64,000 nt of DNA, taken from assembly GCA_001789445.1 (NCBI GenBank), contig MFZQ01000013.1, forward strand, positions 4,596-68,595. The letters are read 5' to 3'. The position numbers were made by a program, and so were the translations under genes. Below the pieces are notes generated by a model. It made no database searches. It saw only the letters and a list, made by a program, of their open reading frames with translations, and had not been told where the DNA came from. This stretch comes from Candidatus Roizmanbacteria bacterium RIFCSPHIGHO2_02_FULL_40_13b (GTDB lineage Bacteria > Patescibacteriota > Microgenomatia > UBA1406 > HO2-37-13b). Of this stretch, positions 34,759 to 38,860 are shown one piece after another (the first letter of the stretch is position 1; each line of letters begins with the position of its first letter).

Positions 34759-34899
34759 ATGTTAAATGGAATTGGAGCGGGGGAATTGTTGTTAATTTCA
34801 TTTGTATTATTGGTTCTTTTCGGAGGAAAAAAGCTTCCAGAGTTGGCACGCGGAATAGGAAGCTCAATAAGTGAACTTCGAAAAGCGGCTCATGAATGA
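34759..34899 (+). CDS. tatA: TatA/E-family Sec-independent translocase subunit (46 aa, below the ORF-track cutoff)
   Basis: MLNGIGAGELLLISFVLLVLFGGKKLPELARGIGSSISELRKAAHE, with AAAGGAGGTGAGG 5 nt upstream. ATGA overlap with the next ORF. Confidence 0.8.
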   Translation: MLNGIGAGELLLISFVLLVLFGGKKLPELARGIGSSISELRKAAHE

Positions 34900-37127
34900 G
34901 TATGAGAATCAAAGTTTTGAGTAAAAATTGTTTCAGAGTTATATCTATATCGACGTTAATTGTTGCCGCCCTGATTGGGCCAACATCGGTCAGGGCAGCA
35001 GCAAATTCGCAATCATGTCCAGTATCTTCTTCGTGTATTGTTGGTGAGTTTTTATACGATGACGCATATGTCCCAATTACGAATGCAACGTGTTCAATTA
35101 CCTCCCACTACCCTGATGGATCCATGTACTTTAACGCCCAAGCACTAACAGGGACTTCTGATGGGTGGTATGGACACAACTTTACTACTTCATCTACTGA
35201 AGGAATGTATCGTTCGCAGATTTGCTGTACAGCGGGCACAGAATACCTCTGTATTGATAAATCATTTACCGTTGTGGCACAATCTACCCAAAGCAGTGCT
35301 CCTTCTACGAATGATATTGCTTCAGCTGTTTGGGGATACTCTGGAAGGACGCTTACGGGCTTTAATTCGCTTATTTCAGATATTTGGTCTAGTGCTGCAA
35401 GAACACTTACTGGTGCTGGTCTAACAAGCGGTAGCATAGCTACAATAGAAAAAACAACAAACGAAACAAGATTACTTTTGGAAAAACAAGTCAACAAGCC
35501 TACGGTTAAAAGCTTTATCGAAGAAGAGCCAAAATTACAGGCAAAACTTGATGCAACAAAAGAAAATGCAAAAAACATCTATTTTACTACGGCGCAAATT
35601 CAAAAAAATGTAAAGAAACTACAAAGTAAATGGGCAAATATATCTACTACTTCTCGACTTGAACAAATAAATACGCTTGCGGGGCTCATTGGAAATACAA
35701 CAGATAATTCGGCAAAAAAAACGCTATTTGGAATGAATAAATGGTTTATATCACGATGGAATTTTTCATCGGGAAAATTGAGCACAACATATATAACTGA
35801 TTTATATACACAAATAAAGAATACACAACAATCACTTATTTCCGGAAACAAAAACACAACAGTGTTTCCTGTACAAGCTATGATTTCTGCTAATCTATTA
35901 CGTGATTCTATCGGAGACGTGGCTGACGATGAGATGGATGCAACGTTGTTTGGAGAAATATCAGAGATCAATCAATATCATGCTGATTTAGAGACATATT
36001 CACAAAAATTAGTAACAATCCAAAAAGACTGGAAGAAATTGGATACAACAAAAAAACAAAAACTTGTTGTTGAATATAACCGTGATATCCTTGCCCTCAA
36101 TCGTATTCCACAAATTGGGGCGATACAGGGTATAACGACTTCAGTAACTACGGATAAACAGCTGAGAAACAGTTTCCTATCGTTATTGGGCTTAGTAAAA
36201 GCAAACAAGCGTCATCTTGCTCAAAATCCAGAAACAAGCTTTGCGAGCACGTGGCTTGAGTTGGGGAGTATCGTTTTTAAAACACTTGTTACCAATCCAT
36301 CGACATTAATAACTCAAACGACAGAAGTTAAATATTATCTACCAAAAGAAGTTAAAAAACAGTCAATTATCAGTATGGATAAAGAATTAACATTGAAATT
36401 TGATGAACAAAAAGGCCAATATTACGTGATTGGTGAATTCGAACTTGAACCTGGTGAATCAAAAACGGTTTCTGTGAGTACGAGTGATATTTGGAGTATT
36501 GTAGACGATGAGCTCAAATCATTAAAAGCACAAGCAAGCGCACTGCTTAAACCACTCGAAAAAACTCCCTATTTTGCCCAAGGAGTTACATTACAAAGCG
36601 ATATTGAGGTTGCACTTGATAAAATTAAACTTAACCAAGAACGTGCGGAGACACCAGAAGAGAAGTTATTTACCTATAGCGAATCCGAGATAGAACTCAA
36701 GTCTGTTAAAACAAAAATTGATACGTTAAAAGATCTAGCATCGCAAGTAAGTTCAAGTAGCACCCTACTTGGATTTGTTGGCGCAACACAGTCGTTAGCT
36801 GTGTGGGGACTTATCATAATAATGAGTGCAGGATTTGTATTTCTTACACTATACATGCGAAAACTCTCGAATGTGCCTGGGGAAACACAAAAAATACCAA
36901 AATCAAAAAAGAAGAAGGCAGTTATTGCCGAAGTAAAGGTACCACTATCAAATAAGCTTAGAGTGAATCTGCATGTTGTAGTTTTTGTATTGCTGTATGG
37001 TGCATCAGTATCATTGTTCTCTGTTTATGCAACGTCTAAACTAGTATCAAATCAGAATAATGGTCTAAATGCGCAGGTATTAGGAACTCAAACCCAAAGT
37101 TCACCGCTGTGCCCTTCAAGTAAATAA
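34896..37127 (+). CDS. large secreted hypothetical protein with C-terminal TM helices
   Basis: Sec-type signal (…GPTSVRA/AA). Repeated AVWGYSGRTLTG / DIWSSAARTLTG motifs. Two C-terminal TM helices. Translationally coupled to tatA. Confidence 0.55.
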   Translation: MSMRIKVLSKNCFRVISISTLIVAALIGPTSVRAAANSQSCPVSSSCIVGEFLYDDAYVPITNATCSITSHYPDGSMYFNAQALTGTSDGWYGHNFTTSSTEGMYRSQICCTAGTEYLCIDKSFTVVAQSTQSSAPSTNDIASAVWGYSGRTLTGFNSLISDIWSSAARTLTGAGLTSGSIATIEKTTNETRLLLEKQVNKPTVKSFIEEEPKLQAKLDATKENAKNIYFTTAQIQKNVKKLQSKWANISTTSRLEQINTLAGLIGNTTDNSAKKTLFGMNKWFISRWNFSSGKLSTTYITDLYTQIKNTQQSLISGNKNTTVFPVQAMISANLLRDSIGDVADDEMDATLFGEISEINQYHADLETYSQKLVTIQKDWKKLDTTKKQKLVVEYNRDILALNRIPQIGAIQGITTSVTTDKQLRNSFLSLLGLVKANKRHLAQNPETSFASTWLELGSIVFKTLVTNPSTLITQTTEVKYYLPKEVKKQSIISMDKELTLKFDEQKGQYYVIGEFELEPGESKTVSVSTSDIWSIVDDELKSLKAQASALLKPLEKTPYFAQGVTLQSDIEVALDKIKLNQERAETPEEKLFTYSESEIELKSVKTKIDTLKDLASQVSSSSTLLGFVGATQSLAVWGLIIIMSAGFVFLTLYMRKLSNVPGETQKIPKSKKKKAVIAEVKVPLSNKLRVNLHVVVFVLLYGASVSLFSVYATSKLVSNQNNGLNAQVLGTQTQSSPLCPSSK

Positions 37128-37529
37128 GAGTACGAACTGTGGAATTGCCAGATTATACCCGTGATGCAGGAGTATTGATGCTGTAACTCCAAGTATAACT
37201 CCTTTTCTACCCTTTCTGAATGAATATGCGATTATGAGCGATGACGTAACATGAAGTGGAATAGTCAAAAACAGTCGCAAAATAAAACTTGCTGTGTTTC
37301 CTACACGTACAATATTAAACAAATAGAGTATGCTTTCTGAAATGGAAAAAAGAATACCAATACAAAGTCCTGTGATAAATGGATTGTATGAAACTTCATT
37401 TTTCTTTGAAAAAAAAATTGTGACCGCTTTTGCAAATTCTTCTACAACTGCAGGGTAGGGAAGAATTTGTTCAAGTGGCCACAATATAAAGGGGAGTATT
37501 GCAGCAATAAGCGGCGTTACTATGAACAT
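37116..37529 (-). CDS. CPBP/PrsW-superfamily intramembrane protease-like protein (short form)
   Basis: VEEFAKA, PLHVTSS and LLHHGYN motifs in TM helices. Paralog of 41887-42303. Confidence 0.5.
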   Translation of the reverse strand: MFIVTPLIAAILPFILWPLEQILPYPAVVEEFAKAVTIFFSKKNEVSYNPFITGLCIGILFSISESILYLFNIVRVGNTASFILRLFLTIPLHVTSSLIIAYSFRKGRKGVILGVTASILLHHGYNLAIPQFVLLFT

Positions 37530-37535
37530 ACATGT

Positions 37536-37679
37536 TTATTTATCTGAAATTGATTTTTTAAACTCTCGAATTGCTTCACCAAGACCACGTGCCAACTCTG
37601 GAAGCTTTTTCCCCCCGAAAAGCACGAGCAAAACGATAGCAATTATAACTATTTCAGTTGTACCGATTCCTCCTAACAT
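37536..37679 (-). CDS. tatA: TatA/E-family subunit (47 aa, below the ORF-track cutoff)
   Basis: MLGGIGTTEIVIIAIVLLVLFGGKKLPELARGLGEAIREFKKSISDK. Confidence 0.8.
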   Translation of the reverse strand: MLGGIGTTEIVIIAIVLLVLFGGKKLPELARGLGEAIREFKKSISDK

Positions 37680-37721
37680 ATTATTTGCACCTCCTCTCGT
37701 ATATTCATTCTGTATGTATTA

Positions 37722-38474
37722 TCATACATGATTTCTTAATATAAATCTATTAAGTATAACGGTAAGCTCAAAAAGTAGGATGAGCGGTATAGTAAGGAAA
37801 ACGAGGGAAAGTAGGTCTGTTGGCGGTAATAACGCCGCAAAAAGTAACGATATTGCATATGCAAAGATACGTTTATCAACTAATGCTTTGTACTTAATAA
37901 TTTTTACTTTTAGGAGAATTGTTAAAAAAATTGGAAACTGGAACCCAATTCCCATAAGAAGTCCAGTAATAATAACTTGTGATAAGAATTGAGATACATC
38001 TAAGAAGTTTCCAATATGTAATTGCAATGATTTTTCATAAAATAAGATGATCATATACCTCATGATGACTATCCCAAATACCATCCCAAAAATAAAGAGG
38101 ATAATACTTAGAGGGATTAACGAGACAATGAGTCGAAATTCTTTTTTTGTTAGGGCGGGGCGAATAAATAATAGTATTTGCAATACAATTAAAGGAAATA
38201 CAAGAATTGAACCCAAAAGTAACGCAGTATTTATTGCTAAGTTTAGAAATTGAAATGGTGAAGTAAAAACAATATTTATGCCTTTAAAATCAAAAACGGT
38301 AAGAATGATTTTAATGATTGCTTCATAATAAATAAACCCGAGTGCTGATCCGATAAAAAATACAGCAAAAATTAAAACAACCCGTCTTCTGACTTCCATT
38401 AAGAAAGGCATGTATTGTTCGCGTGCATCTAGCAAAGAAGGAATGGTTCCTGATTGTTTCATAGAAGAATTCAT
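37722..38474 (-). CDS. tatC: Sec-independent translocase subunit TatC
   Basis: Six-TM protein with MPFLMEVRRRVV near the N-terminus and a TatC-like helix pattern. Confidence 0.8.
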   Translation of the reverse strand: MNSSMKQSGTIPSLLDAREQYMPFLMEVRRRVVLIFAVFFIGSALGFIYYEAIIKIILTVFDFKGINIVFTSPFQFLNLAINTALLLGSILVFPLIVLQILLFIRPALTKKEFRLIVSLIPLSIILFIFGMVFGIVIMRYMIILFYEKSLQLHIGNFLDVSQFLSQVIITGLLMGIGFQFPIFLTILLKVKIIKYKALVDKRIFAYAISLLFAALLPPTDLLSLVFLTIPLILLFELTVILNRFILRNHV

Positions 38475-38477
38475 ATA

Positions 38478-38615
38478 TTACTTATCCGTATCTTTTAAGC
38501 TTTTTTTGAATTCTTTTACAGATTGTCCAAGCGATTTAATAAATTCAGGTATGCGTTTACCACCGAAAAAGAGCAGTATTAATAGTGCAATAATCAAAAC
38601 TTCTGTAGTTCCCAT
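38478..38615 (-). CDS. tatA: TatA/E-family subunit (45 aa, below the ORF-track cutoff)
   Basis: MGTTEVLIIALLILLFFGGKRIPEFIKSLGQSVKEFKKSLKDTDK. Confidence 0.75.
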   Translation of the reverse strand: MGTTEVLIIALLILLFFGGKRIPEFIKSLGQSVKEFKKSLKDTDK

Positions 38616-38620
38616 AGTAG

Positions 38621-38860
38621 TTACTTCCCCTCACCCCCTTTTTCTTCTTTCATTTCATTCTTTTCTACAACTTTTACCCCCTCTATATCTAAATCATCGT
38701 TCAGGGTACTTTCAAATTCCTTTTTAACTTTTTTGATCTCTCTTCCAGATTCACCGAGTCCTTTTGCCCATTCCATTAGCTTTTTTTGCCCAAATAGTAC
38801 GAGAAGTATAAATGCAATGATAACAATCTCTGTCGTGCCAAGATTATTTAAAATATTCAT
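38621..38860 (-). CDS. TatA/TatB-like subunit with extended acidic tail
   Basis: LGTTEIVIIAFILLVLFGQKKLMEWAKGLGESGREIKK followed by a charged 40-aa tail. Confidence 0.7.
   Translation of the reverse strand: MNILNNLGTTEIVIIAFILLVLFGQKKLMEWAKGLGESGREIKKVKKEFESTLNDDLDIEGVKVVEKNEMKEEKGGEGK

Follow-up and report, generated by a model that had tools for sequence, protein, structure and literature searches.

Twin-arginine translocation (Tat) is usually explained by the export of cofactor-loaded redox enzymes. Bacillus subtilis encodes TatAd–TatCd together with the cargo PhoD, in addition to TatAy–TatCy and TatAc, and the actinobacterial Rieske protein is inserted by a dual Sec/Tat route, with an internal twin-arginine motif before its last transmembrane (TM) helix. 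Within the Tat core complex, both TatA-type proteins sit on TatC (PMC13323110). Campylobacter jejuni carries tatA2 at the distal end of its nap cargo operon (PMC4148689), and the TatA of Providencia stuartii is reported to be activated by the rhomboid protease AarA (PMC3712462). Here, we analyze a 64-kb window (64,000 nucleotides of contig MFZQ01000013.1, numbered from its first letter) from Candidatus Roizmanbacteria, a lineage of the Microgenomates in the candidate phyla radiation (CPR). The window contains a Tat locus with one tatC and four TatA-type genes, one of which is coupled to the gene for a large surface protein with a Sec-type signal. With moderate confidence, we interpret the locus as a canonical translocase in which the TatA proteins have split into a core and an accessory tier, the latter tied to a surface-protein module.

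The original prediction had read the five Tat genes from the letters alone, and all of them were borne out by a listing of the open reading frames (ORFs) between 33.5 and 40.5 kb. We classed the TatA genes by position: U2 is the second gene upstream of tatC, U1 lies directly upstream of tatC, D lies directly downstream of it, and B is coupled to the large-protein gene. On the minus strand, tatA4 (38621-38860, 79 aa, U2) is the first gene of an operon and is followed by tatA3 (38478-38615, 45 aa, U1), which starts 5 nt past the tatA4 stop, then by tatC and tatA2 (37536-37679, 47 aa, D). On the plus strand, tatA1 (34759-34899, 46 aa, B) ends in a stop codon that overlaps the ATG of a 743-aa ORF (ATGA). 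Its ATG is preceded at 7 nt by the strong Shine-Dalgarno sequence AAGGAGGTGA, so that both the ribosome-binding site and the coupling ascribed to the plus-strand copy were found in the sequence; tatA2 likewise has a Shine-Dalgarno site, GAGGAGGT.

Family membership was assessed with hidden Markov models (HMMs), which upheld the original assignment. All four small ORFs exceeded the gathering cutoff of Pfam PF02416 (TatA_B_E; 21 bits), scoring 40.6 (tatA4), 50 (tatA3), 65 (tatA2), and 50.8 bits (tatA1), with E-values from 1e-10 to 4e-18. The NCBIfam model TIGR01411 (tatAE; cutoff 53.9) was passed by tatA2 alone at 63.8; tatA3 (52.9) and tatA1 (51.4) fell just under it and tatA4 (40.0) clearly under. 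An alignment of the four proteins shows in each the predicted short N-terminal TM helix, FG hinge, and amphipathic helix, with E9, F21, G22, and K24 invariant and about 11–12 hydrophobic residues separating the polar Glu from the FG. All four also align to the solved TatA structures 7b7o, 9e07_F, and 2l16. The tatA3 hinge reads FGGKRIPEF, and tatA4 is distinguished by an FGQKK hinge without the next Pro, a KKxKKEF motif, and a charged tail. An HMM built from these four proteins and run over six-frame ORFs of at least 28 aa detected no fifth TatA in the window.

Three of the ORFs fall below 60 aa in length, and two of these, tatA1 and tatA3, are missing from the GenBank record of the genome, whose annotation at this locus covers tatA2 (as "translocase") and tatA4 (as "hypothetical protein") but no other TatA. 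These points would favor the view that part of the small ORFs arose by chance and are not genes. Against it stand the Pfam E-values given above, the Shine-Dalgarno sites before tatA1 and tatA2, and positional orthologs of each copy in dozens of genomes. The ratio of nonsynonymous to synonymous substitution (dN/dS), calculated between the window copies and their positional orthologs in three relatives wherever dS was unsaturated, ranged from 0.03 to 0.40 across the copies (0.07–0.25 for tatA4, 0.13–0.17 for tatA3, and 0.03 for tatA2), confirming that coding is kept in relatives. Moreover, other pipelines call these genes: tatA1 and tatA3 are present in the JGI, ENA, and Logan gene calls, and those of related contigs routinely include TatA_B_E genes of 46–48 aa. 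The chance-ORF view is already refuted, and we give it a vanishingly small probability. The earlier remark that three copies are invisible to a 60-aa ORF cutoff is borne out by their lengths. Invisibility also applies to two copies in the deposited annotation, but it does not extend to gene callers at large, as the JGI, ENA, and Logan calls show.

The remaining Tat gene, tatC (37722-38474, minus strand), encodes a 250-aa protein with six predicted TM helices that matches Pfam PF00902 at 128 bits (cutoff 25.1). TatC, like the 743-aa protein, has a 100% identical counterpart in Candidatus Roizmanbacteria bacterium RIFCSPHIGHO2_02_FULL_40_13b. It scored 112 against TIGR00945, under the equivalog cutoff of 132.7, as expected of a divergent CPR sequence. 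Residues 24–247 align, as a full-length match, to Aquifex TatC (4b4a) and E. coli TatC (9dzz). Glu27 (in FLMEVRRR) and Glu112 (in PALTKKEFR) are invariant across the 21 relatives in the TatC alignment and match the corresponding glutamates of Aquifex TatC; we take them to be the equivalents of E. coli Glu15 and Glu103, which bind the twin-arginine signal. By these criteria TatC appears canonical, with its predicted binding site for twin-arginine (RR) signals intact.

For comparison, we collected 73 tatC-centered loci from species-representative genomes of Roizman-, Gottesman-, Davies-, Woese-, Levy-, and Amesbacteria and WWE3. The four-protein HMM, applied to their six-frame ORFs, located 2–8 TatA genes near almost every tatC. 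Four TatA paralogs had been considered unexpected on the premise that a minimal system pairs one TatA with TatC. Neither the expectation nor the premise survives in this lineage. Among the 59 loci with sufficient flanking sequence, TatA copies numbered 0 in 1, 1 in 3, 2 in 22, 3 in 14, 4 in 13, 5 in 2, 6 in 3, and 8 in 1. Since 33 of the 59 neighborhoods hold at least three, four copies are ordinary here, and the one-TatA premise is inapplicable to the Microgenomates, where almost every tatC is preceded by at least two distinct TatA-type genes.

The copies can be told apart by sequence. When each TatA was assigned the class of its closest counterpart from another genome, the class agreed for 60/67 U1, 53/58 U2, 35/37 D, and 27/29 B proteins (about 90%). 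U2 proteins have a median length of 66 aa, a KK hinge without Pro, the KKxKKEF helix, and a charged tail. The U1 consensus is FGGKKIPEF and that of D and B is FGGKKLPEL, these last two being mutually the closest classes at 57–61% identity. In four of five loci with 5–8 copies, the upstream genes alternate between U2-type and U1-type, which suggests that the long and short genes were duplicated as a unit. The four copies thus represent four ancient, separately conserved orthogroups in two tiers, core and accessory. The most copy-rich case comes from a marine Patescibacteria genome (locus L003, 8832-10889 and 14683-14829), in which eight TatA-family genes surround one tatC; the six upstream genes form three alternating long/short pairs, and D and B copies are also present.

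The occurrence of TatA and TatC in Microgenomatia has been reported (PMC9166423). A literature search on multi-copy TatA or on this cluster in CPR found no account of the multiplicity, and the multi-TatA layout with its module is, to our knowledge, undescribed. In passing, many Microgenomates metagenome-assembled genomes in the set (L001, L002, L004, and others) are publicly titled "uncultured Gammaproteobacteria bacterium", which looks like mislabeling; their TatC proteins are 50–80% identical and lie in the same gene cluster.

The D and B classes track a set of genes other than tatC. We scored co-occurrence in 66 TatC-anchored loci, each with at least 5 kb of downstream sequence. In 34 of them, a conserved cluster is present with the order U2-U1-tatC-[D]-prsW, convergent with the pair formed by the large-protein gene and B-class tatA, usually followed by a divergent gene for a protein with Fic and helix-turn-helix (HTH) features. 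Its non-Tat parts are a short PrsW-like protease, a Sec-exported surface protein of 750–1100 aa, and, usually, the divergent Fic/HTH regulator. A D- or B-class TatA was found in 34/34 loci with the large protein and 4/32 without, and a PrsW-like gene in 31/34 and 0/32, respectively (Fisher p of about 1e-14 to 1e-15 over the 66 loci, with kinship ignored). Of the four exceptions, in which a D or B TatA occurs without the large protein, two have weak large-protein-like genes and one has a miniature of it. Sampling in reverse, with three large-protein homologs on long contigs as anchors, returned the same neighborhood in 3/3 cases, tatA1-type copy included, in agreement with the TatC-anchored set.

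The pairing of the B-class tatA with its partner is close. Of about 30 loci, nearly all place the start codon of the large gene between −17 and +14 nt from the tatA stop, the two outliers being +32 and +396 nt. In L065 and L066, a tatC-tatA operon continues on one strand into a protein sharing the N-terminal module of the large protein; L073 has the order tatC-tatA-tatA-tatA-large gene; and in L025 the gene after the B-class tatA encodes a miniature of 276 aa, in which a signal peptide is combined with RTLT repeats and two SH3 domains. The pairing therefore survives rearrangement, change of orientation, and loss of partner domains. In this respect, the earlier suggestion of specialized translocases or a non-canonical role stood in part: the orthogroups are distinct, two of them are linked to the module, and tatA1 is coupled to a Sec-type protein, while the function of these copies is a matter of interpretation.

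The coupled partner in the window (34896-37127, plus strand, 743 aa) is predicted to carry a Sec signal and a TM hairpin, and the 3′ end of its gene overlaps the 3′ end of the convergent protease gene by 12 nt. Its signal peptide is hydrophobic, ends in VRA/AA, and contains no RR. Across homologs, RR was present in only 4/116 signal peptides, the hydrophobic (h-) regions had a median Kyte–Doolittle (KD) value of 2.6, and the cleavage sites were of the AxA type. The Sec-type signal first read from this one copy is therefore a family trait, and on these same figures the protein is not a Tat cargo of the canonical kind.

No Pfam or NCBIfam model matches the large protein, and for many homologs the sole annotation is "SH3 domain-containing". 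An exhaustive profile search revealed a large unannotated family (485 representatives at E ≤ 1e-30) and gave no informative distant relatives. An AlphaFold 2 model (pLDDT, the predicted local distance difference test, of 74; 47 homologs) places after the signal peptide a confident, Cys-rich immunoglobulin (Ig)-like sandwich (residues 38–127), a low-confidence linker with W..RTLTG repeats, a helical bundle (214–442), a second β-sandwich (449–529), and a long helical stalk leading into the first TM helix (TM1). A Foldseek search of the model against the PDB returned generic Ig-like β-sandwich matches alone, with E of 3e-3 or higher. The first domain contains six near-invariant Cys, which fit folding outside the cell. 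Beyond TM1, the window copy has a basic, Lys/Arg-rich loop, a second TM helix (TM2), and a 33-aa tail; most homologs continue past TM2 with one or two SH3b domains (SH3_3/SH3_4), which the window copy lacks. TM1 carries the motif GFVGGxQxxAVWG, in which G626, F627, G629, Q632, V636, W637, and G638 are invariant, a degree of conservation that seems well beyond the needs of a simple anchor. The conserved motif, TM helix, and basic cluster together recall a sorting signal, but TM2 and often SH3 lie beyond them. A conserved RR before TM2 was not found among about 35 homologs (it is sporadic, in L003 and L018, and absent from the window copy), and we rejected a Rieske-like dual Sec/Tat topogenesis for this reason.

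The linker repeats also occur outside the full-length family. The motif W.Y..RTLT.FG.L..D[IV]W.....RTLTG, at 35330-35420 in the window (residues ~146–175, a region of low AlphaFold 2 confidence), is common to all of the differing proteins encoded directly downstream of tatA, including those at L066 10961-12940 and L025 1461-2291. Three kinds of protein carry it: the full-length one with the hairpin anchor, one of 659 aa with a dockerin, and the 276-aa miniature.

The minus-strand operon closes, as originally read, with a PrsW/CPBP-like intramembrane metalloprotease (37116-37529, 137 aa; Pfam PF13367 at 36.4 bits, cutoff 23.5). The match spans positions 51–175 of the 196-position profile, indicating a shortened form, and no NCBIfam model matched it. 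Among 35 homologs, the catalytic motifs EExxK and HxxxN and a histidine in the middle of the chain show conservation of 95% or more, so that the protein is probably active. A second short PrsW-like paralog (41887-42303, minus strand, 138 aa) matches PF13367 at 33 bits; its gene is 3 kb away from the tat operon and immediately precedes those for a histidine kinase (40238-41854, minus strand) and a response regulator (39877-40245, minus strand).

Divergent from tatA1, at 33590-34546 on the minus strand, is a gene for a 318-aa Fic-like protein with a C-terminal winged HTH. Its matches are weak (HTH_11, HTH_DeoR, and SoFic-like_C), and the Fic motif looks degenerate by eye; its orthologs likewise show weak Pfam Fic or HTH_DeoR matches, and they keep this position in about 25 loci. 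In the control region between the two divergent genes (34540-34700, both strands), sigma-70-like promoters are overlapped by operator-like repeats. A promoter scan identified TTGACA-17-CATAAT (11/12 matches), and the repeat [T/A]ATGATAAGAT occurs three times within 100 bp, at 34556-34566 (−), 34636-34646 (+), and 34647-34657 (+). Upstream of B-class tatA genes, this motif was present in 19/22 loci with the Fic/HTH gene and 0/7 without it. Since the motif tracks the gene, the comparison points to the Fic/HTH protein as a candidate dedicated regulator of the operon formed by tatA1 and the large-protein gene.

To look for substrates of the translocase, we screened about 1050 genes of the window and the related loci for RR signals using a regular expression and a hydrophobicity filter, a crude test on a partial sample. 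The screen mostly recovered TatC itself. Roughly five plausible signals emerged, none in the window, and no convincing RR signal was found by this crude screen among the 56 major ORFs of the window. One hit, at L018 6663-7874 (plus strand), is a 403-aa protein with a textbook twin-arginine signal, TRRDFFKVAGAAAAGAF (TRRDFFK), and weak matches to TAT_signal and PD40 β-propeller models. It occupies the usual position of the Fic/HTH gene, adjoining the pair of tatA and large-protein genes, and its signal makes it a candidate for a genuine Tat cargo of the lineage. Other neighbors in the window were rejected as cargo: a 432-aa β-helix/NosD-like protein has no signal peptide, and the histidine kinase, response regulator, and methyltransferase are unrelated. 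Several genomes encode such a NosD-like right-handed β-helix protein, of 432–447 aa and without a signal peptide, within a few kb of the tat cluster (window 42362-43660 (−), L074 11540-12838, L076 14558-15901, and L078 12156-13454), which may reflect conserved gene order only.

We propose the following arrangement. The locus would encode an ordinary Tat translocase that recognizes RR signals and whose TatA subunits have split into four long-maintained paralogs. Its core tier would consist of tatA4 (U2), tatA3 (U1), and tatC, as found in nearly all Microgenomates, with the long copy in a TatB-like, receptor-side role and the short copy as the pore-forming or membrane-thinning TatA; this division is suggested by the constant pairing of the long and short genes and their duplication as a pair. 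The accessory tier would consist of the sister paralogs tatA1 (B) and tatA2 (D), the latter lying within the tatC operon, and would be limited to module-bearing genomes. Tight, conserved coupling of adjacent genes usually marks interacting proteins made in a fixed ratio, and translation of tatA1 in tandem with the surface protein could supply both in such a ratio. The accessory TatAs may then serve as TatE-like extra protomers that contact TM1 of the surface protein, TatC, or both through their TM helices, as the tight gene coupling and the over-conserved TM1 would suggest. As a consequence, the surface protein would be tied to the Tat translocon, or the translocon would be adapted during expression of the module. 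The conserved TM1, with its adjoining basic loop, would be the target of the PrsW-like protease. We infer both the physical association of the module parts and the substrate of the protease.

Several observations weigh against this proposal. None of the four TatAs passes the TatB model TIGR01410 (35.3, 39.3, 30.2, and, for tatA4, 27.9 against a cutoff of 56.5), the GP-type hinge of TatB is absent from all four, each having FG, and at 79 aa tatA4 is far below the typical TatB length. Its TatB-like role thus derives from position, not family membership. The loci used for co-occurrence were picked via TatC, and the Fisher tests treat them without regard to kinship. In three Roizmanbacteria loci (L027, L033, and L037), the large protein is accompanied by the D copy only and the coupled tatA is absent, while the D copy is absent from six loci; neither accessory copy is therefore individually indispensable. 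Finally, a TatA that partners a Sec substrate has no characterized precedent.

Of the competing explanations, one holds that the large protein, or its TM2 and SH3 part, is itself Tat cargo, with tatA1 dedicated to that cargo after the pattern of B. subtilis phoD-tatAd-tatCd or C. jejuni nap-tatA2, and possibly with a dual Sec/Tat topogenesis like that of actinobacterial Rieske proteins. Its conserved adjacency to tatC, the tight tatA coupling, and the precedent of nap-tatA2 in C. jejuni all speak for such a role, as do the few homologs with RR in the n-region (4/116, e.g., SMRRQMI in L002), the minimal tatC-tatA operon of L065/L066 that is followed by an N-terminal-module protein with an LDRRNSIL signal, and the basic loop before TM2 with a foldable SH3 beyond it in most homologs. 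The remaining 112/116 signal peptides, however, lack RR and have Sec-like h-regions (KD median 2.6), the six near-invariant cysteines point to oxidation and folding outside the cell, no RR is conserved before TM2, and the window copy ends in a 33-aa tail without SH3. We consider this explanation improbable. Alternatively, the extra copies could be redundant, TatE-like dosage copies whose position beside the module is inherited gene order, in which case the locus would record an ordinary lineage-specific gene expansion. By hinge (FGGKKLPE), amphipathic helix, and TIGR01411 score (63.8 and 51.4), the D and B proteins look entirely canonical, the E. coli paralog TatE is known to be redundant, and some lineages lack one accessory copy or the other. 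Simple redundancy is harder to reconcile with distinct orthogroups whose characteristic residues are kept over six or more candidate phyla or classes, with their restriction to module genomes (34/34 versus 4/32), with a spacing to one partner gene that stays within −17 to +14 nt in about 30 genomes, or with a pairing that outlasts a change of orientation and the loss of partner domains (L025, L065/L066, and L073), and we find it likewise improbable.

A further explanation detaches the accessory TatAs from TatC and makes them partners or substrates in PrsW/CPBP-centered sorting or processing of surface proteins. In sortase, exosortase, and CPBP-type sorting, a motif, TM helix, and basic cluster stand at the extreme C-terminus of the target, and the enzyme is encoded nearby. 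The GFVGG-TM-basic segment resembles such a signal, the protease motifs are conserved, and the protease, large protein, and D/B TatAs co-occur as a block; P. stuartii AarA offers the precedent of an intramembrane protease reported to act on a TatA (PMC3712462). Yet the block always adjoins tatC, with tatA2 inside the operon between tatC and the protease, and the conserved TM helix is not C-terminal, since TM2 and often SH3 lie beyond it. The TatAs also lack the N-terminal extension that AarA removes, and we rejected AarA-like activation on that ground. Independence from TatC accordingly strikes us as quite unlikely. Returning to the two-tier translocase, a stronger version holds that a TatA clade was recruited into a four-part membrane module (TatAs, surface protein, protease, and Fic/HTH protein) attached to the Tat translocon. 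We advance this version only tentatively and think it on balance unlikely. If true, it would describe either a Tat translocase with a dedicated trans-side (cell-surface) accessory protein or a role for TatA-type proteins beyond the transport of RR-signal cargo, for example in the insertion, organization, or processing of a membrane-bound Sec substrate.

Separate from the Tat genes, a GC-rich, strongly folding intergenic element (38930-39140; RNA fold z = −3.7) lies just upstream of the tat operon. It is built from short palindromic modules such as GCCTGCCTGCCGGCAGGCAGGC, copies of which are scattered over at least 12 further sites of the AT-rich window: approximately 348-393, 1012-1029, 2509-2553, 6369-6390, 10412-10486, 11613-11649, 13305-13380, 17696-17783, 31625-31651, 32465-32483, 58357-58400, and 60983-61042. 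The element matches no Rfam family and is all but missing from the related loci; no Rfam family or tRNA was found anywhere in the window. It looks like a dispersed repeat family of the repetitive extragenic palindromic (REP) or miniature inverted-repeat transposable element (MITE) kind; a riboswitch or leader was rejected given the lack of an Rfam match and the dispersal over at least 12 other sites. Translated, the repeat reads LSFPRRRES...MDPR, and this stretch forms the N-terminus in the longest-ORF calls of at least two real genes. The affected ORFs are 30255-31664 (−), 58306-59913 (+), and 39031-39186 (+). The repeat inflates such predictions, and the true starts of the affected genes are probably further downstream.

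The link between accessory TatAs and a surface-protein module bears on what Tat is for in cells of this kind. CPR genomes of about 1 Mb are largely without the redox enzymes that usually explain the pathway, yet this lineage keeps 2–8 TatA-type genes. The module offers a handle on the purpose of Tat in reduced, probably host-attached cells, and on roles of TatA-type proteins besides forming the transport site. On a practical level, surveys based on deposited annotation will undercount TatA in CPR because two of the four genes here are missing from GenBank.

Compared with the described systems, the locus is a composite. As in E. coli TatABC with TatE, one TatC is accompanied by several TatA paralogs, two distinct TatA-types are encoded upstream of tatC, an extra short TatA-type copy exists, and both RR-binding glutamates of TatC are kept. 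It departs from E. coli in having four paralogs in place of three, no recognizable TatB, the order long-short-tatC, and extra copies that are not standalone but tied to a non-Tat module of surface protein and protease. With C. jejuni TatA1/TatA2 it shares a short, lineage-restricted second TatA in another operon, with a partly specialized role. The host operon there, however, encodes the RR-signal cargo NapA and a chaperone, whereas here the partner is Sec-type and the tatA gene precedes it and is coupled to it.

B. subtilis likewise combines several TatA paralogs with a Gram-positive-type envelope and places translocase genes by a specific secreted protein, but there TatC is duplicated into parallel translocases, whereas in this lineage a single TatC serves 4–8 TatAs and the neighboring protein has no RR. 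The association of an intramembrane protease with a TatA-family protein recalls P. stuartii, although the connection here is one of gene context, the enzyme is a PrsW/CPBP metalloprotease and not a rhomboid serine protease, and the TatAs do not have the 8-residue N-terminal extension. Like the Rieske protein, the large protein has a Sec-handled N-terminal part, a late TM helix, and, in most homologs, a foldable C-terminal domain (SH3); unlike it, the internal twin-arginine motif is not conserved, and the window copy is without the C-terminal domain. What sets the locus apart from all of these parallels is that the partner protein is a Sec substrate.

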